64,000 bases of DNA. Origin: an uncultured virus (IMG/VR IMGVR_UViG_3300042564_004671). Taxonomy: Duplodnaviria > Heunggongvirae > Uroviricota > Caudoviricetes. Location of the stretch: IMG/VR virus record IMGVR_UViG_3300042564_004671; one strand, written 5' to 3'. The notes beneath the pieces are model-generated. The model did not search any database. It was given only the letters and a program-made list of their open reading frames with translations, and had not been told where the DNA came from. The translations under genes were made by a program, and so were the position numbers. Each line of letters begins with the position of its first letter. Positions within the stretch are counted from its first letter, which is position 1. Shown one piece after another: positions 3,242 to 63,248 of the stretch.

Positions 3242-3430
3242 CTATATATTAAATATAGATTTGATTCTTTCTTTTCTTATTCTAACTCTTTCATATTTAG
3301 AGTGAAGACTATGCCATTCCATTAAAGAAGCATTAATACTTGACTTACCAGTTTGTCTAGACTTCAACATAATCATATTTTTACCACTAAGTAATTGGCC
3401 AAAGACATCAAGAGTTTCTTTATTATCCAT
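3242..3430 (-). CDS. small protein: terminase Walker-A-like fragment + RxxKI tag
   Basis: MLKSRQTGKSS, then RKERIKSIF; start set at MDNKE, overlapping the upstream stop. Confidence 0.65.
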   Translation of the reverse strand: MDNKETLDVFGQLLSGKNMIMLKSRQTGKSSINASLMEWHSLHSKYERVRIRKERIKSIFNI

Positions 3431-3605
3431 AAATTCTTTTAATTTTTTCTTTTCGTCTTTCAATTTTATCTCTATACTTACGAGAATTAGACATTATTGT
3501 ATAAATTTCTTTACTAAATTTTTCTAAAATATTATTTTGATATTTAGATTTACTCTGATTTATCATACCAATATGATCCAATACAATAATATCTCTTTTA
3601 ATCAT
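3423..3605 (-). CDS. small protein: DnaB/gp4 helicase Walker-B-like fragment + RxxKI tag
   Basis: DIIVLDHIGMI...KFSKEI, then RKEKIKRIY. Confidence 0.55.
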   Translation of the reverse strand: MIKRDIIVLDHIGMINQSKSKYQNNILEKFSKEIYTIMSNSRKYRDKIERRKEKIKRIYG

Positions 3606-3837
3606 TTAATAGTTGGTCAATCTTATTATTTCTTTTTTCCGCTTTTTCTTTAGCCAAACGGATAGCCTTTCGTTCTTCAGATTCTTCTGTTAAATTTGTT
3701 GAGTTATAATAAACTCCAAGTTGGTCTATTAAGTCCTCATAGTTACTATATTTAGATTCAGATTTATCTAAACCATAAACCATATAATCACCATATTTAG
3801 TACCACCAAATATGTCTTTGTAATATTCTTCTTTCAT
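3598..3837 (-). CDS. small protein with RxxKI tag
   Basis: ends RNNKIDQLLND. Confidence 0.6.
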   Translation of the reverse strand: MKEEYYKDIFGGTKYGDYMVYGLDKSESKYSNYEDLIDQLGVYYNSTNLTEESEERKAIRLAKEKAEKRNNKIDQLLND

Positions 3838-4172
3838 TCTAATATATTTTTAATTTTCCAATCTCTTACATTTTCATAAAAATCAATAAAACTATTCATT
3901 CTATGATTCTGAATATTTTTGAATGATTCTATTTTATTAATAATATCATCAATCAATTCTTTTTCTTCAATTAATTGAGAACCATCTGAACCAGGATATC
4001 CTAACCAGATTTTAGGCTCCTTGTTCTTCCTACCATCTAAACAAATTTCAATTTCATCACTATTTAAATGATGGTCTGATAAGTATTTAGACCATTGTGG
4101 TCCACCTAAATTACATCTTAGAGAGATAGTTCCCCCGTCTCTATATGAGTCAAAACTTTTTATATTAAGCAT
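3834..4172 (-). CDS. small protein with RxxKI tag
   Basis: ends RDWKIKNILE. Confidence 0.6.
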   Translation of the reverse strand: MLNIKSFDSYRDGGTISLRCNLGGPQWSKYLSDHHLNSDEIEICLDGRKNKEPKIWLGYPGSDGSQLIEEKELIDDIINKIESFKNIQNHRMNSFIDFYENVRDWKIKNILE

Positions 4173-4173
4173 T

Positions 4174-4908
4174 TTAAATGTTTTTTAAATCATTTTTGAT
4201 TTTTTCCATACCGGTTGATGCCAATTCTTGGTAATGAGTAAATAAGTGTGTTCTATATTCTGGTATATAAAAATCAACATCTGATAAATCTACATAATAA
4301 ATAGAAGCACTTTCTTTGGTTAAGAATGGAATTGTGTTAGCAGGTGATACTTTCATTGAAGTTCCAACAACAATACAAACATCACATTCTTTAGCAGCAG
4401 TCGTAGCCATATCAACAAAATTTGGATCTAGATTTTCACCAAACCAAACAATATGAGGTCTTAATTGAGAACCAGTTGTTGGACATTTATCACCAATTTT
4501 AATTGGATTATATCCTATATCAATAACGGCATCTAATGGTGATGTTTTATGATCATACATACAACCTCTAGCCTTTGTTAACTCACCATGTAAGTGAATT
4601 ACATTAGTTGAACCAGATCTTTCGTGTAAATCATCGACATTTTGAGTCACAACGGTAACATCATAGTCTTTTTCTAATTCAGCAATTATTTTATGTGCCA
4701 AATTTGGTTCAACTTCATTCATTTGAGCACGTCTCATATTGTAGAAATTAAGAACTTTTTCTCTATCTCTACGCCACCCATCAGGGGTAGCAACATCTTC
4801 TATTCTGTGATTATACCAAAGCCCATCGTCTCCAGTTCTGAATGTAGCAACACCACTTTCAGCTGAAACTCCCGCTCCAGTAAAAATCAATACTTTTTTC
4901 TTTTCCAT
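4174..4908 (-). CDS. cobB: Sir2-family NAD-dependent deacylase
   Basis: TGAGVSAESGVATFR, PNLAH, TQNVDDLHERSG, HLHGEL, LRPHIVWFGE, VGTS. Confidence 0.95.
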   Translation of the reverse strand: MEKKKVLIFTGAGVSAESGVATFRTGDDGLWYNHRIEDVATPDGWRRDREKVLNFYNMRRAQMNEVEPNLAHKIIAELEKDYDVTVVTQNVDDLHERSGSTNVIHLHGELTKARGCMYDHKTSPLDAVIDIGYNPIKIGDKCPTTGSQLRPHIVWFGENLDPNFVDMATTAAKECDVCIVVGTSMKVSPANTIPFLTKESASIYYVDLSDVDFYIPEYRTHLFTHYQELASTGMEKIKNDLKNI

Positions 4909-4917
4909 AATATTTTA

Positions 4918-4948
4918 CAAATTTAATTAATTAAAGTTTAATATCAAA
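4918..4948 (-). promoter_or_regulatory. Bacteroidota housekeeping-sigma-type promoter
   Basis: TAAATTTG at 4918-4925 (-), TTTG about 19 nt upstream, 9 nt before the Sir2 start. Confidence 0.6.
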
Positions 4949-4963
4949 GAAACTCTTAATAAA

Positions 4964-4972
4964 TAATATATA
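4964..4972 (+). promoter_or_regulatory. putative late promoter TAATATATA
   Basis: 22 nt upstream of the 1496-aa gene; same 9-mer precedes more than 20 starts. Confidence 0.6.
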
Positions 4973-4994
4973 CATAAAAGAATTACAGAGTTTA

Positions 4995-7900
4995 ATGGCA
5001 AATTTTTCAGACTATCCACTTAGGCCAAAAATACCTAATCTAGGAACATCCTCAATACCAGCTGTGGTAGCAACTACATCGATGAAATCACCGTTGGATA
5101 ATTCTTTTATTAAAAATATGAGTTCTATCATATCCAAAAAACCTTTATTAATTTCAAAGGCAGATTTAATAGGTCTTGGGAAAAATAAAAAGTTAGTTGG
5201 ATATAATCCTTTACAAGACTTAGTATCAGATGCTGGTAAATCATTTAGTCCTAGAATTATAAACTGGGTTGAACCATATGAAATAAATGGTATTGATAAA
5301 AGTTTATTTTACACTGAAGTCAATTCAGGACTTAAAGTTGGAGATAGAGTATTTATATTAAATGGAAATTATGATAGTGATAGTTTAATTATATCCAATA
5401 AATATAAAAAAGGCAGAGACGGGTATAAAGTTCTTTTTGTTGATAATTGTCAAATAGTCTTAGATATAGATTATACTGGAGTTTTACCATATTTAGAAGA
5501 ATCAATAGATAAATTTATAAAAGTTTATTACATAAAAAATGTACAAGATTTTTTACATGCTAATAGACATGCAACTACTGGATCTGCTGAATTTGATTAT
5601 AAATTTAACTACTACCAAAATAACATAGCATTTATTGACCAAGATTATACAACAACAACAAGTTGGGGTAGAAATGGTGGTATTATAGGTTCACCTGGAT
5701 TCTTTGTAAAATCTGGTATAACACAAAGTTGGACAAATATTAGTAATGATTTAATTAATAGTGGATCATATTCATATGCACTTTCACCTATTTATTCAAA
5801 TAATGATAGAATAAAAATAATGGAAAGTGACTTTACCTATAATGGTAAAACATTTCAAGAAGGATTTGTATATAAATGGAATGTAGGACCTACTCAATCA
5901 GAGTGGATAGTTGATGTTAAATACTCTAAACCACTTATAACAAAGGGTAATTTTAGAGATGGTAATTTTAATGGATTTTGGAATACTGGTTTATTTGGTA
6001 GTCAAAATAAACAAATAAAGTGGGAGGGCAAAACTTCAACTTGGAAATCAGGAACTTTATTAAATACAAATTGGATAAAAGGAACATATGAGGCTTTATA
6101 TACATTACCAGAGAGTTATTACTCTGGGTTAAATGATGATGGATTTCCATATCAGAAACTAAATACACCTAATAATTCAGGTAGGAGTTTTAATTTTATA
6201 ATAGACTCTATTATAGAACAATCAACAATTAATAATGGTACAATTATTAATTCAATAATAGGAACTTCATCAGCAACTTATTCAGTTGTTGAAAACTATT
6301 TGATGAATTATACAACACCTTATCCAAATCTTATTAAGAAAGCTTATTTTGAAGATTGTAATTTTAATAATGCTTACATTTCTAATTCTGAATTAAAAAA
6401 TATTAAAACAAATAACTCAAAGTTTGAAAATGTAAAATCAGTAAACTCTTATTTTAGAAACTCTGTTTTTATCAACTCAAATTATAATAGTGATAACATT
6501 ATAAAAATATTAGGATATGATGAGTTAAATGCAACTGAATATCCAAGTATAGGTTCAACATTTAGTATTGGTGGATCATATGCTTCATTAAATGATGTAT
6601 CTCAAAAAGTTTATAAATTTTATATAAACGAAAGTGGTTATAATAGATTAAAAACTGGAGATAAACTATACATAAAAGGTATAAAGTTAAATAATAGTAG
6701 TAAAGAAATACTAAATCTATTTGATAAGAAATTAAGATTAGGGTCTTGGACAGAATATATTGATGATTATAACATCTATACAAATAAATTCTTTAAAAGA
6801 GGTATTGATGTCTCTGCATTTTTATCTTCTCCTTTAGAGAATTCATATTTATTCGAAAGTGTTAGAAAACCAATCGATCCATTGAACACAACTTCACCTG
6901 ATACTTATCACACTTCAGTTTATTCTGCTAACCCAAATAGTAATCTTTATTCAATAGATATTTGGATGAGTATTTATGATATAAATGATGAAGTTTTATT
7001 ACCTTCTAGTCCAGGTTTAAATGGTATGACATCACCAACACCAAATAGACCATTTTTGAAAGAATATTTAAATATAAATACTAGTTGGGAATATCCAACT
7101 AAATATGATTATATTTCAGCAACTGGATCAGGCCCAGTAAAATTAGGAAACATAGTAGATGTGACAAACGCATATATCGTTGATGCTGATTTTGAAAGTG
7201 GTATTTTTGAAAACTCAAATTGGAATAGTGGATATCATATAAATTCTCAAACTGACTTAAATATAACAGATTCGTCAGCAACTTCATCATTAAATGATGG
7301 AGTTTATAACTTATCATTTACTTCAAGTAATAGTTTATTAGCAACTTCTTTATATAATCAATTTCATCAAGAAACTGAATATCCTTTATTTGTAGGAGAG
7401 GTTGTATTTTTAGATGGTGTTGATTTTAATGATGGTACAACCATTACAAGATTACCAGATGCTTACAAAGTAGTTTCAAATAATTTATTAGGAGTTTATA
7501 AATTAGAAGAGTTAGTAACAGGTACAGTTAGTATCATATCATCATTAACTCAATCAACAGGAACTTTCTCTACAACTAATGCGGGTAATAGATATGGTTA
7601 TATTAAATCACTTAAATTCAATAAATCAAAAATAAAATCTGGTATCTTTAGAAGACCTTATATCACAAACTCTATAATTGAGAACGATTCTTATGATTCT
7701 TTGGATAAAGATTTTAGTGATATACCAAAACTTAGAAACTTAGTAGTAACAGACTCTTTATTTACAAATAAGTCAAATAGATTATCATCAGCTACTTATC
7801 TTTATTCATCGTTTTTATCTGGTAGTGATAGTTGGAATAATGGTATAATACAAAACTCTATATGGGTTAATGGTACTTTCTCAAGTGGTGTTATAAAAGA

Positions 7901-9485
7901 ATCATCTTGGTTAGATGGTGTATTCACTGGTGGTCAGTTTTATGGATCAAGAAGTTTCAACGATAACGCAACATCAGATTATCAATATTATGATACTAAT
8001 AGAATTAGAACTTATTATAAAAATGGTTATACTTATGGTAGTCCATATACAGTAGTTGTTGGAACTACTTCAAATGATAGATATTCTTGGAGAGGTGGAG
8101 TTTTCTTAAATGGATTATTCTCTAAGAGTGATTGGGAAAGTGGTACTTTCTCAGGTGGTCAGTTTTTCAACTCAAAATGGTATGATGGTATTTTTGAAAA
8201 TGGAACTTTAGGAAGTAATCAATTATCAACAAGTGATACAATTTTCTACAATGGAACTTTTAGTTATGTAACAGTTGAAAATGCTTTAATTTACGCGAGT
8301 GATACAAGTCATTCAGGAATGTCAAGTTCCACAATTGTTTGGAAAAATGGAGTATTTAATAATGGTATATTCTCTACGGATTATCAACAATCAGCATTAA
8401 ATAGTACATCAAATACAGCAACTTGGGAAAATGGACTATTTAATGGTGGTCAATTTGTATCAATGGCTAAGTGGAAAAGTGGAACATTTAATAATGGTAA
8501 ATTTACATCAGCATATGGATGGTCACAAAGCAGTTCAACACTTCAATCAGATTATAGTTGGGAAAGTGGTAAATTTAACGGAGGTGAATTTGGAAATGCA
8601 AACGGATTAAGTAACTCAACTTGGTATACAGGAGAGTTTAATAATGGAGTATTCAAAGGTAGAGTTTGGAACGATGGTATATTTTTATATGGTGAATTCC
8701 AAGGTAGTGGAGATAGTCCGGTAAGTGGATTAACTTGTGGAAACGCATCTGATTTTGTTAACGCATATACATACTCATATTGGGGACATTGGAGAAATGG
8801 TATATTCACAGATGTAAAAGATAAATTTATAACAGATATAAAACTTTACACAAAGATTAAAAAGTCAATGGATGTTGAAACTAGAGGAGCAAGAGCTAAG
8901 TTTAAAAATGCTTTATGGGAATCCGGAACATTTAGTCATCCAAGTGGAGAAATGTTTAGTTCGGTTTGGTTAGATGGTTCTTTTGAAAGTGGTAAATTCA
9001 AATCAAGTTCATTCAATCCATATGTAAAAAGAGGAGGTTCTTTACAACCATCATTTAACTTAAATGATGATACTTGTTATTGGGAAAATGGTCAATTAGA
9101 AGATAGTGATTTTTATATTTCTAGATGGAAAAATGGAACATTCACTATAGGTACAGCAACGGGTATGATATGGGAAAATGGTGTTAATAATTATATGAAC
9201 GCATTTAATGTATTCTGGGAAGCAGGAACTTGGAAAAATGGAAACTGGTATGGATCTTCTTTTCAATTTGATGGAGAAGTTGATGATGATTATACAATGC
9301 AAATACTAATGAGAGGAATGTATTGGAGTGGAACATCTTCATGTCATGTTTGGAATATATTCTTGGATAATGAATATGAACCATCAGTTATGAGTTTTAC
9401 AGCAAGTACTCCAGTTTTATCACCTCGAAATCTTGGACCACAAGATCAGTCCCCTCTTCCTATAGATACTAACCCAGTAGAGTAG
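4995..9485 (+). CDS. large putative virion structural protein with (W/F)xxGx pentapeptide repeats
   Basis: 1496 aa, S/T/N/G-rich; long runs such as WESGTFSGGQF, WENGLFNGGQF, WKNGNWYG. Confidence 0.6.
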   Translation: MANFSDYPLRPKIPNLGTSSIPAVVATTSMKSPLDNSFIKNMSSIISKKPLLISKADLIGLGKNKKLVGYNPLQDLVSDAGKSFSPRIINWVEPYEINGIDKSLFYTEVNSGLKVGDRVFILNGNYDSDSLIISNKYKKGRDGYKVLFVDNCQIVLDIDYTGVLPYLEESIDKFIKVYYIKNVQDFLHANRHATTGSAEFDYKFNYYQNNIAFIDQDYTTTTSWGRNGGIIGSPGFFVKSGITQSWTNISNDLINSGSYSYALSPIYSNNDRIKIMESDFTYNGKTFQEGFVYKWNVGPTQSEWIVDVKYSKPLITKGNFRDGNFNGFWNTGLFGSQNKQIKWEGKTSTWKSGTLLNTNWIKGTYEALYTLPESYYSGLNDDGFPYQKLNTPNNSGRSFNFIIDSIIEQSTINNGTIINSIIGTSSATYSVVENYLMNYTTPYPNLIKKAYFEDCNFNNAYISNSELKNIKTNNSKFENVKSVNSYFRNSVFINSNYNSDNIIKILGYDELNATEYPSIGSTFSIGGSYASLNDVSQKVYKFYINESGYNRLKTGDKLYIKGIKLNNSSKEILNLFDKKLRLGSWTEYIDDYNIYTNKFFKRGIDVSAFLSSPLENSYLFESVRKPIDPLNTTSPDTYHTSVYSANPNSNLYSIDIWMSIYDINDEVLLPSSPGLNGMTSPTPNRPFLKEYLNINTSWEYPTKYDYISATGSGPVKLGNIVDVTNAYIVDADFESGIFENSNWNSGYHINSQTDLNITDSSATSSLNDGVYNLSFTSSNSLLATSLYNQFHQETEYPLFVGEVVFLDGVDFNDGTTITRLPDAYKVVSNNLLGVYKLEELVTGTVSIISSLTQSTGTFSTTNAGNRYGYIKSLKFNKSKIKSGIFRRPYITNSIIENDSYDSLDKDFSDIPKLRNLVVTDSLFTNKSNRLSSATYLYSSFLSGSDSWNNGIIQNSIWVNGTFSSGVIKESSWLDGVFTGGQFYGSRSFNDNATSDYQYYDTNRIRTYYKNGYTYGSPYTVVVGTTSNDRYSWRGGVFLNGLFSKSDWESGTFSGGQFFNSKWYDGIFENGTLGSNQLSTSDTIFYNGTFSYVTVENALIYASDTSHSGMSSSTIVWKNGVFNNGIFSTDYQQSALNSTSNTATWENGLFNGGQFVSMAKWKSGTFNNGKFTSAYGWSQSSSTLQSDYSWESGKFNGGEFGNANGLSNSTWYTGEFNNGVFKGRVWNDGIFLYGEFQGSGDSPVSGLTCGNASDFVNAYTYSYWGHWRNGIFTDVKDKFITDIKLYTKIKKSMDVETRGARAKFKNALWESGTFSHPSGEMFSSVWLDGSFESGKFKSSSFNPYVKRGGSLQPSFNLNDDTCYWENGQLEDSDFYISRWKNGTFTIGTATGMIWENGVNNYMNAFNVFWEAGTWKNGNWYGSSFQFDGEVDDDYTMQILMRGMYWSGTSSCHVWNIFLDNEYEPSVMSFTASTPVLSPRNLGPQDQSPLPIDTNPVE

Positions 9486-9528
9486 TAAATTTTTATTACA
9501 ATGAAAGTAAAATAATATATATAATAAT

Positions 9529-12500: not shown

Positions 12501-12867
12501 AAATCTATCAATGAATTTTAGTGGGTACGTTGGATATACTGTTCAATCAACTTTTAATTATGTAATAGATAACATTAAATTTATAGAGATTGATATGATT
12601 CCCTTTTTCCAGTATTTCGTTGAATCAAATATTAATAAAGGTATACAAATTCCTTTTCAAGGAATATCACCTTATATAGATTATAGTAATCCATTCTTTA
12701 ATTTCTTAGATAATATATCACTTGGTGTTAGCAGTATTGCTGTATCAAATTCAAATGTTGCAGTTAGTGGAGTAGGTGTTGGTGTTTCAACAAATAATCC
12801 ACCAGCAAATAATCCAGCAGGTGGATTATTTGAGACCGGAATAGGAACTGAGGGTCGAGGTGATTAG
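9529..12867 (+). CDS. large putative virion structural protein with WxxGx repeats
   Basis: 1112 aa; FKSGVWENGVWNSGW, WLSGAFFNGYFRGVWNYG; TAATATATA at 9513-9521. Confidence 0.6.
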   Translation: MSWNTSVSGISSADWRLTTIGTGGPTPIRMRVNSQVSPSKLTTLTYVSSTNYQFKSGKTYQFVTDVYYYMNNLNPNSASFSISTPIETVSNFQWDESLDYNKFKGTSPSILGTGTSVGRFPGITNSNFYFYATPPSDISTKNIIEYNANNKFGTASNTETISAGITNFNLSEMDYRIQGFAFYKWGDAPYSRAGTSSTFTGAYPQNGLGWTYDANYNSGELLHWYDDSQVNLNPVGGGRTTKIGSVGYRQNNYIAKFVPYTYFNFSFNYQNQHGDFPLEIYLSSTLPTNNPGSFSKPTNALLIGTLTQSISVIAGVTYSSRSYSIPHKFFSLEGGRYIYFKGPFVGTQSSATYSSIFITDIVVEGGYHPGNNEQYQTSNVTSIIPYGLIGATYSTYVGNGNTINATQSLSISQINANIGNGTFKSGVWENGVWNSGWRYDDSVQEFSKIYQYFTYNKSKRWRIQIEGPSDAVNSFEIGDKVSIGNIIAIDINENRKTIKGYFTIIAKTDFTIIVEFDNDFPLRRIEKDSDNHRIYVTKNVWLSGAFFNGYFRGVWNYGLFRGYPMITEMYDTHWVDGIFDGGHFNTSYYTVPKFVDTLFYPNETFGGRVGLTFSSKHGLAVGDTILVDKDNKNINPQYDGETTIDNVINDYHIVTALPWGNDSTSEGGTVSVTLSKGVVQKMQFKSKNRSKITSNQSLESTSVFIYDSWMDVNYYNTSAVNIGKPQSLVNTLSGKDYSENNLYGYPTNDVLESSSTFRDSFSTTIREYSLGTKYKIFNNYIGDAGNFQEQFGSTRDYNPIGTPTESVERNSSDSKFINLGWTYSRYNASSLTFSRTFDLGEEGVIGQELLVRAIGRGGILDIYPLTDDEIIANRTNDTIKKLRYTAIEFDLVSHSELLEDGGTFIESSVPTLPILTKKSLFPTGSQGGYPIPMLHFNNINTTLRNIYYSTLGAGGGTVSTIIPASYLPISSNVNHLSTSKKRKIEYFYNKKNLSMNFSGYVGYTVQSTFNYVIDNIKFIEIDMIPFFQYFVESNINKGIQIPFQGISPYIDYSNPFFNFLDNISLGVSSIAVSNSNVAVSGVGVGVSTNNPPANNPAGGLFETGIGTEGRGD

Positions 12868-13577: not shown

Positions 13578-13779
13578 AGAATCCTATATTTTTTAATTTC
13601 TCTTTCATTTCAGATTTGTTTTTTGTTAAACCAACAATATCACAAACTTGTTTTGAAATACCACCAGATTCTATTATAAGAGCATCCGGTTTTGTTACAT
13701 AGTTAATTAGATAATCCAATCCTTGTTTAGCGGCAGATTCTAAGTTTTCTAATTTGATATATCTTTTATTAAAGCTCAT
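13564..13779 (-). CDS. hypothetical protein
   Basis: 71-aa ORF in an overlapping-gene operon. Confidence 0.55.
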   Translation of the reverse strand: MSFNKRYIKLENLESAAKQGLDYLINYVTKPDALIIESGGISKQVCDIVGLTKNKSEMKEKLKNIGFYEFK

Positions 13780-13969
13780 TTTTATTCAGTATTTGTTCAA
13801 TTTTATAGTCTCTATTTTTTCTAAAGTTTATAATAGAGAATGATTCTTCAGATCTAAATCCACAATGTTTACAAATATAAACGAGTGGTTTTGGAATGTA
13901 TCCATAATTAGAAACAGGTTCTGAAAGACTTGTTTTAATATCAGTAGATTCACATTCTGGACAATTCAT
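13769..13969 (-). CDS. Zn-ribbon protein with RxxKI tag
   Basis: CPEC...CKHCG; RDYKIEQIL. Confidence 0.65.
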   Translation of the reverse strand: MNCPECESTDIKTSLSEPVSNYGYIPKPLVYICKHCGFRSEESFSIINFRKNRDYKIEQILNKNEL

Positions 13970-14259
13970 ATATCTAATATCTGATTAATTTTTTTTTCTC
14001 TTAAAATTGCTTTATTTGTTCTTTCAAATTCACCTCTTTCATCTTTATAACCACAATCATTACAAATACTTTGTGATGGAATAGTCGGTTTAGAACCATC
14101 GGTTGGTATAAAAAACTTCCATTTAATATTCTTACTTTTACAATTCGGACAACCTGATAAATCTTCTAAAGTTCCTATAAATCCTGACTTTTGTAATTTT
14201 CCTAAATCATATGTTTTATTACTTTGATTAGGAAACAAACTAAGTAATTTTTTAATCAT
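13966..14259 (-). CDS. Zn-ribbon protein with RxxKI tag
   Basis: CPNC...CNDCG; REKKINQIL. Confidence 0.65.
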   Translation of the reverse strand: MIKKLLSLFPNQSNKTYDLGKLQKSGFIGTLEDLSGCPNCKSKNIKWKFFIPTDGSKPTIPSQSICNDCGYKDERGEFERTNKAILREKKINQILDI

Positions 14260-14443: not shown

Positions 14444-14453
14444 ATATTTTAAT

Positions 14454-15325: not shown

Positions 15326-16858
15326 ATGTTAAAAAGATACTTTGATTTTGTAAATGAATCTCTAAACTTAATACTAGAGTCCGATGTTGTTTATTCTAGT
15401 AAACTTAGAAATGTATTATCTAAAATAGATAGTGAAATCTCTAGAAAACTTATTGAGATAGAAAATAGAGACCTTCCAGTTAGAAGTAACTATTTTGATA
15501 TCATTTCAGATAAAAATGATATGGTTTCATTTATACCAGATAGAAAAGCTCAAGAAATACTTAAAGATGTTAAAGAATTCTGGAGATTCAATGGATCTGG
15601 CGGAGGTTGGTTAAAACACTCAGAATCAAATGCTGAATTGTTTTCTAAATTAGGATATGTTCCAGAAGGAAATCCTTATTCACCAAACTCAAGAGATATT
15701 GGTGAAATAGTTGCAGAAACTACTTCAGAAACATCTGGTAACACATATTGCTGGGTTAAATTCATGAATGGTACTGGAGAATATATTGGACAAGGAGTTT
15801 ATAATAAAGAAAAACTTATAAAAGCAGAAGGAATTAAAGAGAAAGAAGTTTGGACTAAAAGTAGACAAGAAATCGGTGTAGGTAGAGGAATTAGAGCTTT
15901 ATTATTAACAACTGGTGAAAAGTTTTTAGATAAAGATATTGAACAATTTGTTAATATTTATAAAGCAACAATTGATAAATTAAACGATAAGTTTAGTTTT
16001 TTTGAAGTTGTTAGTGGAACAGATATTCATTATTGGTATAATTATGATAATTATTACCAAAGAAGTGGATCATTAGGAAGTTCTTGTATGGCAAGTGCAA
16101 GAGCAAGTTGGTTAGAAATATACACTGCTAATCCAGAACAATGTTCAATGGTTATATTCAAATCACCAGATGATATTAATAAAATAGTTGGAAGAGCTAT
16201 CTTATGGACTTTAACAGATGGTAAAAAGTTCATGGATAGAATCTATACTATAAATGATTCAGATGTTCAGTTGTTTAGAGAATACGCTAAAGAAAATGGA
16301 TGGTATGCAAAATATCATAATAGTAGTACATCAAATTCCGATGCTTACGCACCAGATGGTACAAAAACAAACTTGAATTTAAGGGTTAATCTTTCTCAGA
16401 AAGACTACGACTATTTTCCTTATTTAGATACTTTAAAATATTTTACACCAGGAAGTGGAATATTAAATAACACTGATGGTGAATATGCACTCGAAGATAC
16501 TGGAGGTGGTCATTCATCTTGTGATTGTTGTGGTGGAAGTGGTAGAACTGAATGTGGTGATTGTGATGGAAGAGGAGTAGAAGACTGTAGTAATTGCGAT
16601 GGAAGTGGAAAAGAAGAATGCTCAGAATGTGATGGTAATGGGAAAAACACTTGTAATAATTGTGATGGTTCAGGAAAAGTAGAAGATGATGAAGGAAATG
16701 AGATTGATTGTGATGAGTGTGATGGAGATGGTGAATTAGAATGTGATGATTGTAATGGAAGAGGTAAAGTAGATTGTGATGAGTGTGATGGAGATGGTGA
16801 ACACGATTGTAATAGTTGTGGTGGAGATGGTGAAGTTGATTGTTACGAATGTAACTAA
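15326..16858 (+). CDS. protein with capsid-targeting-like leader, SCM/DRIY/PYLD domain and CxxCxGxG Zn-finger array
   Basis: MLKRYFDFVNE; GSLGSSCM, GRAILW, MDRIY, FPYLDT; 9 CxxCxGxG repeats plus a terminal CxxC. Confidence 0.7.
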   Translation: MLKRYFDFVNESLNLILESDVVYSSKLRNVLSKIDSEISRKLIEIENRDLPVRSNYFDIISDKNDMVSFIPDRKAQEILKDVKEFWRFNGSGGGWLKHSESNAELFSKLGYVPEGNPYSPNSRDIGEIVAETTSETSGNTYCWVKFMNGTGEYIGQGVYNKEKLIKAEGIKEKEVWTKSRQEIGVGRGIRALLLTTGEKFLDKDIEQFVNIYKATIDKLNDKFSFFEVVSGTDIHYWYNYDNYYQRSGSLGSSCMASARASWLEIYTANPEQCSMVIFKSPDDINKIVGRAILWTLTDGKKFMDRIYTINDSDVQLFREYAKENGWYAKYHNSSTSNSDAYAPDGTKTNLNLRVNLSQKDYDYFPYLDTLKYFTPGSGILNNTDGEYALEDTGGGHSSCDCCGGSGRTECGDCDGRGVEDCSNCDGSGKEECSECDGNGKNTCNNCDGSGKVEDDEGNEIDCDECDGDGELECDDCNGRGKVDCDECDGDGEHDCNSCGGDGEVDCYECN

Positions 16859-17268
16859 TCTATAACTTGATTAATTTTCTTATCTCTTATAAATGATCTA
16901 TATATCTGGAAATATTCAGATTTCTCAGATGCTATTGTTTCTTCAAAATTACTATAATTTAGTTCAATTTCAATTGAAAGTGGTATAAAATTACCATACC
17001 AATCAAAACAATCATTTTGTATTTTTACAATAGTGGATGAATTAAATATACTAAGAACCTTAAATTGATCAAAAATTATAATTGTTCTTTTATCAAAAAC
17101 ATCAATAGGATCATTGGTATACTTATTCATCCATTCTTTGAAAAATCGGATAGAATTTTCACAATTTGTAGTAACCTTTATATAAGACCTACCTGTTTCA
17201 GATACCATATTAACTTTAGATATCTCACCTATAACATTTAATCCATTTTTGTCATCTATTAAAATCAT
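16855..17268 (-). CDS. protein with weak tail-tube(gp19)-like features + RxxKI tag
   Basis: FFKEW...KRTIII...IEIELNYSNF; ends RDKKINQVID. Confidence 0.45.
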   Translation of the reverse strand: MILIDDKNGLNVIGEISKVNMVSETGRSYIKVTTNCENSIRFFKEWMNKYTNDPIDVFDKRTIIIFDQFKVLSIFNSSTIVKIQNDCFDWYGNFIPLSIEIELNYSNFEETIASEKSEYFQIYRSFIRDKKINQVID

Positions 17269-19695: not shown

Positions 19696-19701
19696 TTGAT
19701 T

Positions 19702-19980
19702 TTAGATTTTTTCTCCTAAAATAAATTCTATCTTTTTGAATCTATCATCAGTATCAGTGAAGATAATGAATACCCTATCGATATCTTTAAATTCTTTTGA
19801 TTCGCCAGTAAATTCATTAACCATTACATCTTTTTTGTAAACAACATCAATTCCAGGTTCTTCACCTAAAAATCTACGCATATCTTCTTTAATCTGTGAT
19901 AGTTTCCAGTCATCATTTTTAAAATCAATCTTAGAGATGTAGTCTCTAATCGCCATTTCTTTCATTGAGCTCATATTCAA
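19702..19980 (-). CDS. hypothetical protein
   Basis: 92-aa ORF; start uncertain. Confidence 0.55.
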   Translation of the reverse strand: MNMSSMKEMAIRDYISKIDFKNDDWKLSQIKEDMRRFLGEEPGIDVVYKKDVMVNEFTGESKEFKDIDRVFIIFTDTDDRFKKIEFILGEKI

Positions 19981-20008: not shown

Positions 20009-20344
20009 TTAATATAGTTTACCTGTTTCTAAATAGTAGGTATTATTTGTAGTTATCATTTCAAATGTTTCGTGTATTGATTCACATTTTACCATAAATG
20101 ATTTTACATCTTCATCAGTTAAATCAAACCACTCACCATTTACTTTTTTAGTTTTAAATGTTCTATGTAGTTGTGATTCTATTTTTGTTCCCCATTTTGA
20201 CTTGAAAGAATTTATAACATATAGTTCAGAACCATTACCCGTCTTTAACTCTTTAATTCTTTTAGAGACTTCTCTTCTTGTATAACCTATTTTATACAAT
20301 CTTCTTCCTTCAAATTCAGCACATATTAAGTAAATATTAAACAT
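20009..20344 (-). CDS. GIY-YIG / T5orf172-family nuclease domain
   Basis: IYLI...YKIGYT...RIKELKTGN...IESQLHRTF...VNGEWFDL. Confidence 0.85.
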   Translation of the reverse strand: MFNIYLICAEFEGRRLYKIGYTRREVSKRIKELKTGNGSELYVINSFKSKWGTKIESQLHRTFKTKKVNGEWFDLTDEDVKSFMVKCESIHETFEMITTNNTYYLETGKLY

Positions 20345-20374: not shown

Positions 20375-20560
20375 TCACCAGATTTGTGGGAAGTTAGTTG
20401 GTCCTTTTGGAGTAGAAGTTATAATAACATTAGGAACATCTATTCCAAATATTTTACCTATTTTTATTTTTCTTAAATATCTTTTAGAATATTCAACACC
20501 TGATGTATCTTTTTCAATGAAGTGAATACCTGGTCTCACATATCTACCTATTCTGTTCAT
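20375..20560 (-). CDS. small protein: RxxKI tag + terminase coupling-motif fragment
   Basis: RKIKIGKIFG followed by VIITSTPKGPTNFPQIW; start set at MNRIG. Confidence 0.65.
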   Translation of the reverse strand: MNRIGRYVRPGIHFIEKDTSGVEYSKRYLRKIKIGKIFGIDVPNVIITSTPKGPTNFPQIW

Positions 20561-21041
20561 TTGATTTCTTCTTTTTACTTCTTCTTGTTTTCTTGTGAGT
20601 TTTAGATGATTCAGCTCCATATTTATAATCTAAATAGAATAAAGTACCTGATGGAGCAGACATTGGAGTTACTCCTTTTTTCATCAACTCTTTATATTCT
20701 TCATCATCTTCTAACTTCTTTTCAGTAAATTCACCACCTTCAATAACAGCTTCAATTTTACCATCACGATTTTCAGAATTTACTCTACTTTTTACATCAT
20801 CAATTTCTTCTTTTGATGCGAATCCTATTATTTCATTGGACATTAATTTTGATGATACTTTCATAGCCATTGGTAGTAAACTTGGAAACTCTTCAGTTTT
20901 AGTTTCTTCTAATATTTGATTTGATTGATTTTCGGCTAACTGAGCTAAATTGTCTAATTGAGATCCAGTCATACCCATAGACCCTAAGATAGGAGCCCAT
21001 TTTTTCATTAATTCTTCTTTATTTGGTTGTTTCATAAACAA
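20544..21041 (-). CDS. major-capsid (gp23) N-terminal fragment with inserted RxxKI tag
   Basis: KKWAPIL..ENQ..LLPMAMKV..[RDGKIEAVI]..VTPMSAPSGTLFYLDYKY. Confidence 0.7.
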   Translation of the reverse strand: MFMKQPNKEELMKKWAPILGSMGMTGSQLDNLAQLAENQSNQILEETKTEEFPSLLPMAMKVSSKLMSNEIIGFASKEEIDDVKSRVNSENRDGKIEAVIEGGEFTEKKLEDDEEYKELMKKGVTPMSAPSGTLFYLDYKYGAESSKTHKKTRRSKKKKSNEQNR

Positions 21042-41683: not shown

Positions 41684-42079
41684 TTATTTTCTAGATTCCA
41701 AAATATCACCAATAGTTGTTTTAGAATAACCTATCATTTTTTCAACCCCTAAGATATGATTAATTCTTTTTTGTCTTAAAACATCTTTTGGATAAACAGA
41801 GTTTAAATCAATCAACCGACCAGTTGAATAAGTATGCTTAGTTACTCTGATACCTCTTTTACTCACATACTCAACATATTTTGGTTGAAATTCTTCTGGT
41901 AGGTATTCATAACCAACACATTCATATCCATTACAATAATATCTACCACAATCACAATTCCAATAATAGTAATCATCATCGTAATCATCATCCCAATAAC
42001 CCCAATAGTAATCACTACCAAGTTCAGCCTTGGTTATTATCTTATCAAGAATTTCTGTTCTATTTTTTCTCAGTGCCAT
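41684..42079 (-). CDS. hypothetical protein with RxxKI tag
   Basis: Y/D/W-rich N-terminus; RQKRINHILG. Confidence 0.6.
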   Translation of the reverse strand: MALRKNRTEILDKIITKAELGSDYYWGYWDDDYDDDYYYWNCDCGRYYCNGYECVGYEYLPEEFQPKYVEYVSKRGIRVTKHTYSTGRLIDLNSVYPKDVLRQKRINHILGVEKMIGYSKTTIGDILESRK

Positions 42080-42467
42080 TTATTAATTCGCTTAATCTCC
42101 AATCCCTGATGTTGATTTTGAAATCATCAAAAGAATGAGAATTTGACATTATATCTATTCTTGTATTTATTTCTTTTATTAAGTCACTTATTTCCATATC
42201 TCTATTTCTACATTGACCATCATAAACACATTCAATACTTGTTTTATTAGAAGCTAATATCCACATAGTAATATTTGAGTAAATATCAAACATTCGTTTT
42301 ACTTGTGCTAAATACTCTTCAGCAGATTGTCTAGACTTACCAGATACATCAACATGAACGGTAAAGATAGGATTATTTAAATTTAGTTCAATTTTTTCTG
42401 GAGCAACACCATATGAGTGAGTAAATGGATTGTTATTTATAGCATTTTGAAGATTTTGAAAAGACAT
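42060..42467 (-). CDS. portal(gp20)-like fragment + RxxKI-type tag
   Basis: IFTVHVDVSGKSRQSAEEYLAQVKRMF; RDWRLSELI. Confidence 0.5.
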   Translation of the reverse strand: MSFQNLQNAINNNPFTHSYGVAPEKIELNLNNPIFTVHVDVSGKSRQSAEEYLAQVKRMFDIYSNITMWILASNKTSIECVYDGQCRNRDMEISDLIKEINTRIDIMSNSHSFDDFKINIRDWRLSELINGTEKK

Positions 42468-45618: not shown

Positions 45619-45948
45619 TTAGTTTAATACCTGTTTTATTTTTTCGTCTCTTTGATAAGCTTTATAATCTTCTCCTTCCGTGATAAAATATTCTGACATT
45701 TCTTGTTCAGTAAAATAATACCACTTTATTCTCTCACTATATGGTAAATTCCACCAATCTTTTCTACCAGAATGATATCCATGTTGATCATCTTCAACAC
45801 AAAAACCATATCCTTTTCTACCATTAACTTCTGGATCAGCATTAAATTCTAAATTACCTCTTCCTTTGATATCATAATGACTACCAACTTTAATAGTTTT
45901 GTATTCTTTGACACAAACAACTCTTTGACAATCCCATCTATCTTCCAT
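45619..45948 (-). CDS. small protein with RxxKI tag
   Basis: ends RDEKIKQVLN. Confidence 0.6.
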   Translation of the reverse strand: MEDRWDCQRVVCVKEYKTIKVGSHYDIKGRGNLEFNADPEVNGRKGYGFCVEDDQHGYHSGRKDWWNLPYSERIKWYYFTEQEMSEYFITEGEDYKAYQRDEKIKQVLN

Positions 45949-46105
45949 CGAATAGTTTTTTAATTTTATATTTTCTAGCTTTTATAACATTAACTCTACA
46001 TCTTAACTTGGATAACTCTGAGTAAACATCAGTTACATTCATAGCACCGTAGCTCGAGTTCAAAATCATCTTGTAATAAGCTAATTTACTTTCTAATTCT
46101 CTCAT
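45938..46105 (-). CDS. unlisted 55-aa ORF: DNA polymerase B motif-B fragment + RxxKI tag
   Basis: MRELESKLAYYKMILNSSYGAMN...ARKYKIKKLFDGR; ATGA overlap with the upstream gene. Confidence 0.7.
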   Translation of the reverse strand: MRELESKLAYYKMILNSSYGAMNVTDVYSELSKLRCRVNVIKARKYKIKKLFDGR

Positions 46106-56092: not shown

Positions 56093-58084
56093 TTAACTTT
56101 CATATTGTTTAATCTTATCTTCAAGATATTCAATTGTTTTCTTTTTAATTTCAGGTGATGTTTTTCTACTATGACTTAACCAAGTTAAAGCTGCTTTGAA
56201 TCCACCTTTAACACCTTTTTCTATCATTATATCAATGAAATCTAATCTACCATACTCTGCTGCCCATTTAACTGGCATGTTTCTACCAGAATCATCTGCT
56301 AATTTAGCACCATACTTAACAAGTAATTGGAATACATCTAAGTATCCTTCTCCAATATCATCAATATTTTTCCAACCACCTCTACAACATCTTCTTATTG
56401 GAAGTGAGTTGTCAAAGTTAGGATTTAATCCTTGTTTCAAACAATATTCAACAGCATTAACATCATTACAAATATTATTAAATACTTCTCCTGTTAATTC
56501 AGAACCATTAGATACCAATAATTTAATCATATCTAAGTCTTGAGCTTTATTAACAATAGCGTCTGCTTTACTTCTTAAGTTTGGAGAACCACCTAATTCT
56601 AAAATAACTTTAGCTTTCTCGTGATTGTTTTCTTCAACAGCATGTAAGAGAGCTACACAATTATCTTTATTGATATTAGCGCCATCTTCTTTAACATATT
56701 GTTTAATCTTTTCAATTGAAAGTCCTTTCTTAACTATTTCTCTTTCAGCAAGTTTTGCTCTTTCTCTTCTAGTGATTTCTTCTTGAGTCATTGGTTTAAG
56801 CTGAGCAAAAAGATCTTCCTTAATATCATATTCACCTTCCCATTTTTTAAGAAGATTTTTAATTGAACTAAGAATATTAGCGTCGTCTTTAGCATGAGCC
56901 GCTCTTACTGATTGACCTGGTTGAATAGTAATACCAATAGTAGATAAGTTATCATATTGAGGAATATTAAAGTTATAAATATAATATTGTTTGTTATTAT
57001 GGTTACCAACATAGTTTTCCCACTGAGAAGAATAATCTTTAATACAATGTCGTGTATGACCATTTAACATCTGATTAGCTTGAAAAGACTTAACTTCAAT
57101 AATTAAGATACCATTATCTTCAAATACGGTATCAGAACCTAAGTAACCATACTTCTCATTACAAGCATTAATCTTATCATAAAAAGCAATAATTGAATCA
57201 TTTTCTGATGATTTCAAGTAGTTCTGAGCCGCTTTGATAAACTCTCTAATATTTTTATATCTGAAAAGAGGTCCGAAATATCTTTTATCACCTTTCTTAT
57301 AAGCTTTACCATGAATAACTTGGTCAGCATCAATTATTCTAACCTCACCAAAGAATGATTTCCATAGTCTTTCTTTTTTAACTTCATCTTTACCACCTAA
57401 TTGATCAAATCCTCTACAAACTTCAGCAAATTGGTCTTTAATAACTTCTGGTGAATCCATATAATCTTTTTTCAACACCGGAGTTAATTTATCAATTACT
57501 TTTTTAATTTTTTTATAATCCTCTAAACTATCTAATCCATCAATAAGTGCCTCTGCATTATTTGGAATATTTGGATCGATAAAATTAGCATCAAACTTTT
57601 TAGGAAGTCTATCAAGTAATCCAGAATATTCAACAAGTTTAGATAGAATGTTATTAGGTGCTTCAATTTCTTTACCATCAACTTCAATTTTCTCTACTCT
57701 TGTAAATAACTCTTCCATTGAAACCATCTCAACAAAAAAGAAATAAGTAAATGGATAAGTCCACCCTATGTGTTTTTGACCTAAATACTCTCTAATCTTT
57801 AAGAAGTCTGGATTTCTCTCAATATTTCTTACTTCTTCATCTTTTAGTCTAAGTTCTCTTAACTTTAATTTGATCTCACTTTGTTGTTCTGGAGTAAAGT
57901 CACCTAAAGTCAAACATCTTTTTTCTTTATGATCCAACTGAGCTTTTAACTCACCTTCAACAAATCCAAGGTTAGTAGCAGCAGTAGTTAACAAATAAGT
58001 ATCTTTCAAGAATTTTTTAGCCTTATCAAGATTTTCGTTTAATGGTTTCTCACCTAAAAATTGATTATATTTAAATAGTTTCAT
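56093..58084 (-). CDS. ankyrin-repeat protein with capsid-targeting-like leader
   Basis: MKLFKYNQFLGEKPLNE; GANIN..ALLHAVE, LLVSNGS, WAAEYGRLD. Confidence 0.75.
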   Translation of the reverse strand: MKLFKYNQFLGEKPLNENLDKAKKFLKDTYLLTTAATNLGFVEGELKAQLDHKEKRCLTLGDFTPEQQSEIKLKLRELRLKDEEVRNIERNPDFLKIREYLGQKHIGWTYPFTYFFFVEMVSMEELFTRVEKIEVDGKEIEAPNNILSKLVEYSGLLDRLPKKFDANFIDPNIPNNAEALIDGLDSLEDYKKIKKVIDKLTPVLKKDYMDSPEVIKDQFAEVCRGFDQLGGKDEVKKERLWKSFFGEVRIIDADQVIHGKAYKKGDKRYFGPLFRYKNIREFIKAAQNYLKSSENDSIIAFYDKINACNEKYGYLGSDTVFEDNGILIIEVKSFQANQMLNGHTRHCIKDYSSQWENYVGNHNNKQYYIYNFNIPQYDNLSTIGITIQPGQSVRAAHAKDDANILSSIKNLLKKWEGEYDIKEDLFAQLKPMTQEEITRRERAKLAEREIVKKGLSIEKIKQYVKEDGANINKDNCVALLHAVEENNHEKAKVILELGGSPNLRSKADAIVNKAQDLDMIKLLVSNGSELTGEVFNNICNDVNAVEYCLKQGLNPNFDNSLPIRRCCRGGWKNIDDIGEGYLDVFQLLVKYGAKLADDSGRNMPVKWAAEYGRLDFIDIMIEKGVKGGFKAALTWLSHSRKTSPEIKKKTIEYLEDKIKQYES

Positions 58085-61581: not shown

Positions 61582-61610
61582 TATATACTACATAAAAATA
61601 AAATATTAAA

Positions 61611-62177
61611 ATGAAAAGATTTTCAGATATTAAAAAAGTAAAAGTTAAAAAAATCAACGAAGCCGAAGGTGAATCAAATTTACCTTCAAACTACGAAGAT
61701 ATGTCAAAAGAAGAACTTTTAGCTCTTATGTCAGGTAAAAAAGAACAACCTGAACCAGAAAAGAAAGAAGAAGAAAAGAAAGAAGTATCTAACGAAGGTG
61801 GTGATGTTTCTAAATTCATCTCTAAATTGTTAGAAAGTAGAGAGATGGCTCAAGTTTATCACTGGACGGTTAAAGGTGATATGGGTTCACACGCAGCTCA
61901 CTTAGCATTAGAAGCTTACTACAGTGGTGTTATTGAATTTATTGATGATATCGTTGAGGTTTATCAAGGTCAATATGGTTTAATTGAAGGATATGATCAA
62001 ATTGCTACAGATGAAACAAGATCTAAAGATAAATTGGATTACTTCAAAGAAGTTGTTGAATTTGTTAAATCAGAAAGAAGTTGCATTAAAGTAGAAGATA
62101 CACACTTACATACTATAATAGATGAGGTTGTAGTTCTTATTTACAAAACAATCTACAAATTAACTTACAATAAATAA
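61611..62177 (+). CDS. ferritin/Dps-like four-helix protein with leader
   Basis: QVYHW...HAAHLALEAYY...DDIVEVYQGQYG...IIDE; TAATATATA at 61579-61587. Confidence 0.65.
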   Translation: MKRFSDIKKVKVKKINEAEGESNLPSNYEDMSKEELLALMSGKKEQPEPEKKEEEKKEVSNEGGDVSKFISKLLESREMAQVYHWTVKGDMGSHAAHLALEAYYSGVIEFIDDIVEVYQGQYGLIEGYDQIATDETRSKDKLDYFKEVVEFVKSERSCIKVEDTHLHTIIDEVVVLIYKTIYKLTYNK

Positions 62178-62178
62178 A

Positions 62179-62727
62179 ATGAAACACATTAAAAAACATC
62201 CTATTAATGATAAAGCTCAGAAGCTTTCAAAGGATATAAAAAAACAAGATCATAGTAAACCAGCATCAAAAAAGAAATTAGACGCTGATAAATCTTTAAG
62301 TGATCCTGAGGTTTCAATGAAGGTAACTAAACCATCAAATAAAAAATTAAATGGTGAAAAGTTTTTATCTAACCCTACAATCAATACTAAAAAGCCTAAT
62401 AAACCTTCTAATAAAAATTTAGATGGTGAGAAGTTCTTAGCAGAAGGACTTAATCATTTAAAAAGATTCAATGAAGAATTCGATTCAAGTGGATATCAAT
62501 CACACTGGACTAAATTTGCTCAATGGTTATGGGAAAAAGACTTTGAATTATATGGTGGTGGAGAAGACCTTCACAATAAATTTATGGAAGTATCTAATGA
62601 TGATAACTTATCATCAGAAGATAAAGCTAGTCAAATTACAAATTATTTAGATGAAAAATGGGGAGTCTATGATGGATATATGTCAGTATATAATTATTTA
62701 GAATCTTTATTCATGGATGAAATTTAA
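62179..62727 (+). CDS. basic repeat domain + internal leader + acidic domain
   Basis: KPSNKKLNGEKFL-type repeat x3; internal LNHLKRFNEE. Confidence 0.6.
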   Translation: MKHIKKHPINDKAQKLSKDIKKQDHSKPASKKKLDADKSLSDPEVSMKVTKPSNKKLNGEKFLSNPTINTKKPNKPSNKNLDGEKFLAEGLNHLKRFNEEFDSSGYQSHWTKFAQWLWEKDFELYGGGEDLHNKFMEVSNDDNLSSEDKASQITNYLDEKWGVYDGYMSVYNYLESLFMDEI

Positions 62728-62729
62728 CT

Positions 62730-62758
62730 AAAATCCCACTTAATAAGTGGGATTTTTT
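62730..62758. terminator. bidirectional intrinsic terminator
   Basis: aaaatcccactta-a-taagtgggatttt. Confidence 0.75.
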
Positions 62759-62997
62759 ATTTCTATAGTTCCGTAAAAGTTATTATTTATAATCTTTTTA
62801 GAGTATCTACTCATAATTGATTTACTTGGTGAGAATTCATCTTTAACATCTAAACCTAAACCAAATATCTTATTAATCTTTCTTTTTCTACTTACATTCT
62901 TAGAAGTATATCCAGATATAACAGAAGTGGTTGTCAATGGAATATAAGGAGCAAAAACATAACCTTGTTCTAAATTACTTTTCTTTCCTATTATCAT
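62740..62997 (-). CDS. major-capsid (gp23) C-terminal fragment with inserted RxxKI tag
   Basis: QGYVFAPYIPL..[RKRKINKIFG]..FSPSKSIMSRYSKKIINNNFYG. Confidence 0.7.
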   Translation of the reverse strand: MIIGKKSNLEQGYVFAPYIPLTTTSVISGYTSKNVSRKRKINKIFGLGLDVKDEFSPSKSIMSRYSKKIINNNFYGTIEIKNPTY

Positions 62998-63133
62998 TGA
63001 ATATTTTTTTAATTTTTTCTTTTCTTTTATCTTTTCTAAGAAAAGAACTTAAAAAGTTCATAGAAGAATAGTCATGTAATCTACTTCCAGGTCCACCTAG
63101 TACAACATTCCACTCATCTCTCGCTTTTATCAT
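62975..63133 (-). CDS. unlisted 52-aa ORF with RxxKI tag
   Basis: MIKARDEWNVVLGGPGSRLHDY...RKEKIKKIFND. Confidence 0.55.
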   Translation of the reverse strand: MIKARDEWNVVLGGPGSRLHDYSSMNFLSSFLRKDKRKEKIKKIFNDNRKEK

Positions 63134-63248
63134 ATAATCTTTTGATTTTATTTTTTCTCTTTTCAGATCTTTCTTTTTTAGACCATCTGAAAATTGAATC
63201 TGTTATAGACTCTTGAAACTCTTTTGATTGATTTTCCCAAATTGACAT
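63114..63248 (-). CDS. unlisted 44-aa ORF with RxxKI tag
   Basis: MSIWENQSKEF...KRKNKIKRLYD. Confidence 0.55.
   Translation of the reverse strand: MSIWENQSKEFQESITDSIFRWSKKERSEKRKNKIKRLYDKSER

Follow-up and report, generated by a model that had tools for sequence, protein, structure and literature searches.

Tagged mini-genes bearing segments of core virion and replication proteins in an uncultured T4-like phage contig

Why would a large phage carry a set of very small genes, each of which appears to hold one signature segment of a core phage protein joined to the same short basic helix? The question is raised by a 64,000-nucleotide stretch of DNA from an uncultured virus (IMG/VR record IMGVR_UViG_3300042564_004671), referred to throughout as the window, which spans bases 79-64078 of a linear viral contig of 175,660 bp (G000; 29% G+C; CheckV completeness about 85%). 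Judged by its predicted proteins, the source contig is a T4-like myovirus related to the "huge" phages. A preliminary description of the window had listed eight tiny open reading frames (ORFs) of this kind and read them as possible immune decoys or baits. The pattern holds up and extends further than that description.

The main comparison genome was G002, a 385-kb relative that is 95% complete; a "foreign" capsid protein for comparison was taken from G006, another T4-like contig. Similarity of single ORFs to core proteins was assessed by Smith-Waterman (SW) alignment, and is given as a z score with the number of 300 shuffles reaching the score. Coordinates are those of the window unless the contig is named, and all window ORFs discussed with their coordinates as pieces or motif carriers, together with one endonuclease gene, are located on the minus strand.

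The shared motif and its basic sub-type

The strict tag was defined as [RK][RK]x[RK]Ixx[ILV][FYW] and a looser motif as R..[KR][IL]..[ILV][ILVFY]. The strict tag was found seven times in the window and eight times in the contig; every copy lies on the minus strand and is read in the frame of a small ORF. The chance level is 2.5 (mean of 30 order-2 Markov six-frame simulations; range 1-5). As a consensus, the ends of the small proteins read R-[DNKE]-x-K-[IL]-x-x-[ILV]-[LFIY]. A basic helix common to several tiny ORFs had been claimed before and was recovered here, as were the starts, stops and overlaps of those ORFs. The looser motif gave 27 matches in 215 ORFs, 18 of them within 15 aa of the C-terminus (1.7 expected) and none within 15 aa of the N-terminus (1.7 expected; two such cases in G002). 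C-terminal placement was likewise seen for 33 of 45 matches in G002 (3.0 expected), for 10 of 11 in a 50-kb sample of LR745206 (0.7 expected), where 10 of 63 ORFs end in the motif, and for three of four in a sample of LR756504 (0.3 expected). In the cultured Tenacibaculum phage pT24, no match was found over the initial 50 kb.

Arginine occupies motif position 0 in 51 of 67 C-terminal cases vs 21 of 242 internal cases. The residues upstream of the motif are not conserved, and its carriers are otherwise unrelated. Motif codons match the background usage of the genome and vary synonymously among copies, and copies of the tag DNA are about 73-77% alike and form no high-identity repeat; codon usage and DNA divergence together indicate that selection acts on the peptide.

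In this contig a Shine-Dalgarno sequence is absent from gene starts and the leaders are A-rich from -18 to -9 and without G. The tag could in principle be the in-frame reading of the next gene's A-rich initiation region, and at 14 of the 18 C-terminal motifs a called gene on the same strand does overlap the ORF end or begin within a few bases. The other four have no close downstream gene (three have none on the strand, two of these being followed by terminators, and one has a gap of 47 nt), and three tags are internal rather than C-terminal, so that the motif is not merely an in-frame leader. Nor does A-richness explain the invariant arginine and the fixed spacing; the codons vary as the background does, and the motif is absent from most gene ends. 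An origin as a by-product of translation signals is accordingly considered extremely unlikely.

Four further candidates were set aside. A CRISPR-like array of repeats and spacers was ruled out, since the tags differ in DNA and vary synonymously. Recoded stops joining the small ORFs were ruled out as well: the capsid, portal and terminase genes are open under translation table 11, and the ORF at 3423-3605 ends in two stops. An N-terminal MK..[FY]NE, considered as a second label, was seen in only three of 215 and one of 489 ORFs. The tag presumably resembles the membrane-targeting helix of MinD, but its invariant arginine would lie in the middle of the hydrophobic face, and a membrane-targeting role was dismissed on that reasoning.

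Two sub-types of the motif were distinguished. The majority of carriers end R-[DNE]-x-K-I-x-Q-I-L and are similar to nothing. The basic sub-type, [RK]K-x-[KRST]-I-x-x-[IL]-[FY], is carried by ten ORFs in the contig (seven in the window) and nine in G002. The basic helix thus belongs, as one sub-type, to a C-terminal linear motif that is found across the clade. A uniform test was applied in which the best SW score against 12 core proteins had to reach z of at least 5 with none of 100 shuffles reaching the score. It was passed by 11 of 19 basic-tagged ORFs vs two of 41 other tagged ORFs and two of 100 untagged small ORFs (Fisher 1.2e-5 and 4.9e-9, respectively). The segments concerned (sheath residues 3-47, tube residues 1-11, the capsid pieces and protease residues 137-165) gave z of 6.7-19 with no shuffle reaching the score; two further pieces, from the capsid A-domain and the protease N-terminus, are present in G002. 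As aligned, each mini-protein combines a short basic helix with a signature segment, 10-45 residues long, taken from a core protein of the virion or of replication. Outside the basic sub-type, a 172-aa protein with the general motif (contig 90941-91459) resembles DnaB (z 7.3).

Pieces of virion and replication proteins

Three capsid pieces were recognized with the Pfam Gp23 profile (PF07068; 376 positions; gathering cut-off 24.4 bits). The N-terminal piece (20544..21041, 165 aa) matched positions 26-58 (E 8.9e-4, 19.2 bits) and PHROG 138 (E 1e-5), and carries an inserted acidic stretch with the tag-like RDGKIEAVI; its G002 orthologue is 69% identical. The last-strands piece (62740..62997, 85 aa) matched positions 310-354 (E 9.5e-4, 19.1 bits) and, by tblastn, the capsid genes of other phages (E 2e-6); a clean insertion of about 20 aa in it holds the basic tag RKRKINKIF (62863-62889). 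A spine-helix piece outside the window (contig 102988-103203) matched positions 134-185 (E 5.5e-10, 39.6 bits). The last of these scores above the cut-off and both window pieces below it. The preliminary assignments of the two window ORFs to the N-terminus and C-terminus of the major capsid protein are borne out by these matches, and the alignments agree that in both the tag sits inside the homologous sequence. The pieces align to the family profile but are not a capsid fold: each comprises 33-70 aligned residues, most of the fold is not covered, and the full-length gene, which covers positions 6-354, is elsewhere in the contig.

All three scored higher against the foreign G006 capsid protein (SW 110 for 20544-21041, 128 for 62740-62997 and 100 for the spine-helix piece) than against the capsid protein of their own contig (74, 62 and 41), and repeat comparisons of 62740-62997 gave 128-137 vs 62-66. 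By alignment score, then, the capsid pieces are closer to a G006-type capsid than to their own. The AlphaFold2 model of the 62740-62997 protein was of low confidence (predicted local distance difference test, pLDDT, 53), with only residues 33-44, the tag, helical. Two larger proteins of 249 aa and 258 aa (contig 110230-110979 and 100199-100975) are paralogues of the C-terminal half of the phage's own capsid protein, the 249-aa one ending in the general motif.

The ORF at 20375..20620 (61 aa from the inner ATG or 81 aa from the outer) is a piece of the tail-sheath N-arm, corresponding to sheath residues 3-47 with the basic tag RKIKIGKIF (20447-20473) inserted. Against the contig's own sheath it gave z 5.9 (0/300 shuffles), rising to 9.4 with the tag removed, vs 1.9 against the large terminase (TerL); a search of the ORF against phages gave no terminase match. 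The earlier designation of 20375..20560 as a terminase coupling motif was therefore abandoned. The C-terminal half is near-identical in G002. A tail-tube piece outside the window (contig 69751-69852, 33 aa) consists of the first six tube residues followed by the tag; it matches tube residues 1-11, and its MPLPHY is retained through two synonymous changes.

A prohead-protease piece, also outside the window (contig 128780-128950, 56 aa), corresponds to protease residues 137-165 (z 7.6). The start of its ORF overlaps, in another frame, the end of a gp55-like late sigma gene (contig 128922-129287, 120 aa), which was 92-100% identical across 80 of 263 confirmed loci; at two of the 80 the sigma gene and the protease-piece ORF lie in one frame with one stop codon between them. 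T4 gp55 ends in a sliding-clamp (PIP-like) binding tail, and the tag was considered as a tail of this kind, which the late sigma factor or the polymerase would be expected to carry. Such a tail was ruled out for the 56-aa ORF by its identity as a protease piece, and the pT24 homologue of the sigma protein is 119 aa without a tail; a gp45 clamp was not found by Pfam or lenient PHROG scans. The full-length prohead protease (contig 117860-119977) is fused to a long scaffold-like tail of tandem repeats of about 13 residues (YSEYLAENLDKNI). A conserved tag-like ESKINQLF lies at the end of its protease domain, and the tagged protease piece aligns to it. In three cases the tag is a clean loop insertion.

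Full-length copies of the parent proteins had been expected elsewhere in the genome. They were found, all outside the window, for the capsid protein (583 aa), portal, TerL, DnaB-type helicase, tail sheath (1306 aa) and tail tube, as was the prohead protease-scaffold fusion, and the full-length core genes are open under table 11. For the family B DNA polymerase (PolB) the gene (contig 85315-86844) is an N-terminal half only, of 509 aa through motif A, as it also is in four of five relatives searched.

Orthologues of all the fragment genes lie in syntenic positions in G002, with 42-82% identity. Ten of ten aligned genomes have the capsid C-end gene intact and R-K-R-K-I-N-x-I-F invariant in it, and in the ORF with PolB motif B the K, N, S, Y and G of the motif and the R, K and F of the tag are invariant in five of five orthologues otherwise down to 30% identity. 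Conservation of these ORFs in relatives, proposed earlier as a check, was thus observed as synteny, intactness and invariance of tag and signature residues, which together with the link between basic tag and core segments argue for selected genes rather than pseudogene debris. The mini-ORFs are taken to be selected fusions, as earlier proposed, and are predicted to be translated.

For three replication and packaging pieces the evidence is weaker. The ORF at 3242..3430 (62 aa) reads LKSRQTGKSS followed by the basic tag RKERIKSIF (3251-3277), and had been called a terminase Walker A. Its orthologue profile did align to the TerL profile at the Walker A site (hhalign P 9e-4, TerL 107-131), and RQTG-x-S and the tag are invariant in four of four orthologues, which are present in three of five related contigs. 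Against residues 96-130 of the contig's own TerL it reached z 3.8 (4/300 shuffles), however, and one of four orthologues matched Terminase_6N, at E 0.09, so that the assignment is weak. The adjoining ORF at 3423..3605 (60 aa; its stop overlaps the next start) reads DIIVLDHIGMI followed by RKEKIKRIY (3429-3455), and was earlier assigned to a helicase Walker B. It gave z 4.7 (0/300) against residues 311-354 of its own DnaB, and its G002 orthologue is 51% identical with the tag kept. Sequence searches of the PDB with the TerL, DnaB and PolB pieces gave no terminase, helicase or polymerase; the helicase assignment is weak as well.

The third ORF, at 45938..46105 (55 aa), holds K-x3-NS-x-YG, the sole occurrence of K...NS.YG in the contig, followed by RKYKIKKLF (45950-45976), and has orthologues in four of five related contigs. 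The motif B residues reported in it are present; a statistical match to any polymerase was not obtained. None of 15 candidate longer proteins scored, Pfam matched a polymerase in none of five orthologues, and when viral contigs were scanned for close relatives of the TerL and PolB pieces, none was confirmed. The polymerase C-terminal half with motifs B and C was not found in the contig, the 385-kb relative or the five relatives searched, and the identification of this piece consequently depends on the motif itself.

Two other ORFs carry the general motif and were withdrawn from the set. The "portal-like" ORF (42060..42467, 135 aa, ending RDWRLSELI) is a paralogue of the 112-aa ORF at 3834-4172; it gave z 3.1 against the portal (2/300), and the portal was not its best match. 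The "tail-tube-like" ORF (16855..17268, 137 aa, with the C-terminal motif RDKKINQVI) gave z 0.4 against the tail tube (97/300), and nothing with Pfam and PHROGs. Of the eight original assignments, two were wrong and one was misnamed.

Directly downstream of the sheath piece is a gene for a MUG113/T5orf172 (GIY-YIG-type) endonuclease (20009..20344, 111 aa; Pfam MUG113 E 5e-20), whose G002 counterpart (58% identity) occupies the same position, and several other endonuclease genes occur in the contig. Polymerase motif B, the P-loop regions of terminase and helicase, and the capsid gene are typical homing sites. The pieces could therefore be exon remnants of introns, inteins or homing endonucleases, with the tag as read-through of element or junction DNA. 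Yet the endonuclease adjoins only one cluster in the window, and no intron or other Rfam family was found there; a tRNA was likewise not found in the window. In G002 both the endonuclease and the pieces keep their synteny but have diverged in sequence, which marks them as old and stable, and the tag DNA, of limited likeness, forms no high-identity repeat. The pieces are also far from their parent genes, with signature residues under selection. Relics of mobile elements are a very unlikely explanation.

Possible roles of the mini-proteins

The reading that we favour, tentatively and with confidence well short of even, is that the mini-proteins are interface mimics, which cap or compete with assemblies of the parent type. 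A copied segment would bind where the parent segment binds, at the acceptor site of a neighbouring subunit in sheath, tube and capsid, or at the subunit interface of ring ATPases. Such binding would cap, delay or poison the assembly of parent-type proteins, whether those of a rival co-infecting phage or the phage's own, and the shared helix would serve as a common handle or as a blocking element. A rival phage is a possible target because the capsid pieces are of foreign type.

The copied parts count in favour of interface mimicry, being terminal arms or strands: sheath 3-47, tube 1-11, the capsid N-end, the spine-helix region and the last strands. So do the association of the basic tag with core segments, the clean loop insertions, the conserved synteny with invariant signature residues, and the foreign resemblance of the capsid pieces. 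The capsid mini-protein is predicted to be unfolded alone, which would fit folding on a partner. When the sheath piece was co-folded with inner-domain parts of the sheath (residues 24-120 and 900-1306), the interaction prediction score from aligned errors (ipSAE) was 0.53 (runs 0.44, 0.53 and 0.56), with 0.01 for the best of three controls; runs agreed in at least 44% of contacts, and partner pLDDT was at least 48. Among 157 solved complexes 116 scored up to the mark applied, as did two of 215 mismatches, and scores of 0.60 or less came from only 18 of those 157 and from both passing mismatches, so the predicted complex lends weak support to binding of the parent.

Several points weigh against the same reading. 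The sheath co-fold passed only weakly, and a resemblance to sheaths of solved structure may account for the score. The role of the sheath N-arm as a contact between subunits is an assumption taken from general background. PolB motif B is not an oligomer interface. In one orthologue of the TerL piece the Walker A lysine is R, and the chemistry is thus not conserved there. The reading does not explain the helix, and about 40 other small proteins carry a related motif without a core piece. Finally, the ratio of nonsynonymous to synonymous substitution (dN/dS), which had been suggested as a check of selection, was only moderate: crude Nei-Gojobori values, on very short sequences, were 0.25-0.9 vs 0.28 for the capsid gene, with the unreliable value for the 135-aa ORF, whose start was out of register, left out.

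A close parallel is offered by microProteins and dominant-negative truncated homologues, small proteins that each correspond to the interaction segment of a larger one. The microProteins among plant and animal regulators are expected to bind their parent or its partners and to block complex formation. Derivation from oligomerising parents was found here too. The concept differs in that it is not known to have been extended to structural proteins of phages that share one tag, and in that several of the present pieces are closer to a foreign lineage than to the phage's own protein. Dominant-negative interference with assemblies, given as an alternative in the preliminary description, fits at least as well as the decoys that it preferred.

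Those decoys or baits would copy conserved patches detected by immune sensors and would occupy or misdirect the sensors, the helix blocking sensor oligomerisation or handing the sensor to an effector. The copied classes do overlap with sensor targets: within the excerpted text of PMC13581612, the Avs targets include the capsid protein, tail tube, portal, DNA polymerase and RecA-type helicase ATPase, with terminase and portal for Avs1-4. The invariant residues are moreover family signatures, and the T4 internal proteins, diverse anti-defence payloads sharing one short targeting sequence (PMC3012670, in part), offer an analogy. The triggers of Avs and other STAND (signal transduction ATPases with numerous domains) sensors are thus of the same classes as the pieces here (capsid, tail tube, terminase, polymerase and helicase ATPase), but they are folded, full-length proteins, sensed by shape complementarity over extended interfaces (PMC13581612, in part), whereas the capsid mini-protein is predicted to be unfolded. 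The targets listed in the same excerpts include neither the sheath nor the prohead protease, sheath being named only as a possible undetected target, and phage fragment decoys are not mentioned, the four uses of "decoy" referring to mass spectrometry (PMC13581612). A true mimic might also trigger a sensor instead of blocking it. Immune decoys are considered unlikely.

A wider version of the same idea would make the set a phage-encoded library of tagged core-proteome epitopes, in which every mini-protein would present the best-conserved patch of its capsid, tail, packaging or replication parent, tied by the helix to one effector or blocking sensor oligomerisation through it, and neutralising either immunity or rival assemblies. 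This too is put forward as a doubtful proposition.

The motif might instead be a portable targeting signal that directs its carriers to one place, such as the prohead (as ejected internal proteins) or a hub protein, the core origin of some carriers being secondary. In T4 the capsid targeting sequence (CTS) is N-terminal and is removed by the prohead protease. It provides a precedent for such an address, and a related segment, ESKINQLF, is conserved in the prohead protease-scaffold protein. The motif ends 18 otherwise unrelated small proteins here, 33 in G002 and the ten noted in the LR745206 sample; its arginine is enriched at C-termini, its codon use points to selection on the peptide, and several tagged operons lie behind a motif, TAATATATA, that also precedes structural genes. 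The T-even internal proteins IPI-III are alike in that one short conserved peptide is common to diverse small proteins in variable regions, with anti-defence payloads in T4 (PMC3012670, in part). They differ in the site of the signal, which in the present contigs is C-terminal or loop-inserted rather than N-terminal and cleaved (no N-terminal case in G000, two in G002), and in that the T4 payloads are not fragments of core proteins. An address does not explain the link between the basic sub-type and core pieces, nor the insertion of tags within loops. As a full account of the mini-proteins it is rather improbable; a role as address label for the motif family as a whole is plausible.

Genome setting and significance

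Tagged ORFs without a core assignment are found beside the fragment genes and elsewhere in the window. Two overlapping micro-ORFs of 52 aa and 44 aa (62975..63248) end RKEKIKKIF (62999-63025) and RKNKIKRLY (63132-63158) and gave no supported match to a core protein; tagged ORFs lie directly 5' of the capsid-piece gene in five of eight related loci. A 109-aa ORF (45619..45948, ending RDEKIKQVL) is translationally coupled to the PolB-motif ORF. ORFs of 79 aa and 112 aa (3598..4172) end RNNKIDQLL and RDWKIKNIL, are without core similarity and have orthologues in G002, and a 92-aa ORF (19702..19980) ends in the variant RFKKIEFIL. A 66-aa ORF and a 97-aa zinc-ribbon protein (13769..14259), ending RDYKIEQIL and REKKINQIL, lie between genes for ribosomal protein bS21 and a DnaJ-like protein. 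The operon (12864-14443) includes three small ORFs, of which these two are the tagged ones. For two general-motif proteins, tblastn against GenBank phages gave nothing.

Other genes of the window encode SIR2 (4174-4908), PhoH (32257-33015), an Hc1 histone-like protein (53483-53659) and an ankyrin-repeat protein (56093-58084). Giant ORFs have long internal repeats (27421-27850, 16500-16853 and 7907-11281): the repeats are 15-nt periodic in a 1720-aa ORF, of a 33-nt CxxC type in a 510-aa ORF, and composed of WxxGxF-type units in ORFs of 1496 aa and 1112 aa.

The TAATATATA motif and its close variants number 88 copies in the contig (in the window, for example, 3242-3251, 20349-20358, 21396-21405 and 63612-63620). 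Most lie 4-5 nt or 19-26 nt 5' of start codons; portal, sheath, tube and baseplate genes are among those so preceded. The motif probably acts as a T4 late-type phage promoter, and some mRNAs may be nearly leaderless. In an RNA-library run, contigs of relatives, mostly 90-95% alike, covered 29 of the 30 bins of 2800-21500, which is no demonstration of transcription.

The contig's own capsid protein is 73% identical to those of two "uncultured phage" records of about 640 kb and 29% identical to those of Lak phages. The sheath protein has 1441 database relatives at E of 1e-10 or less, and the late sigma gene is present in 263 viral contigs. Going by such matches, the mini-gene family belongs to a very abundant group of uncultured large phages.

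Full-text literature searches (main texts) found no description of the motif or of fragment decoys, and we know of no described example of such modular interference. If the mini-proteins do bind the partners of their parents, they would constitute a modular, protein-level interference, directed either at rival viruses or at the host sensors that detect the core phage proteome. Natural selection would then have picked out, in the capsid, sheath, tube, protease and motor proteins, the shortest segments needed for recognition, and the shared helix would act as a portable handle for a putative reader.

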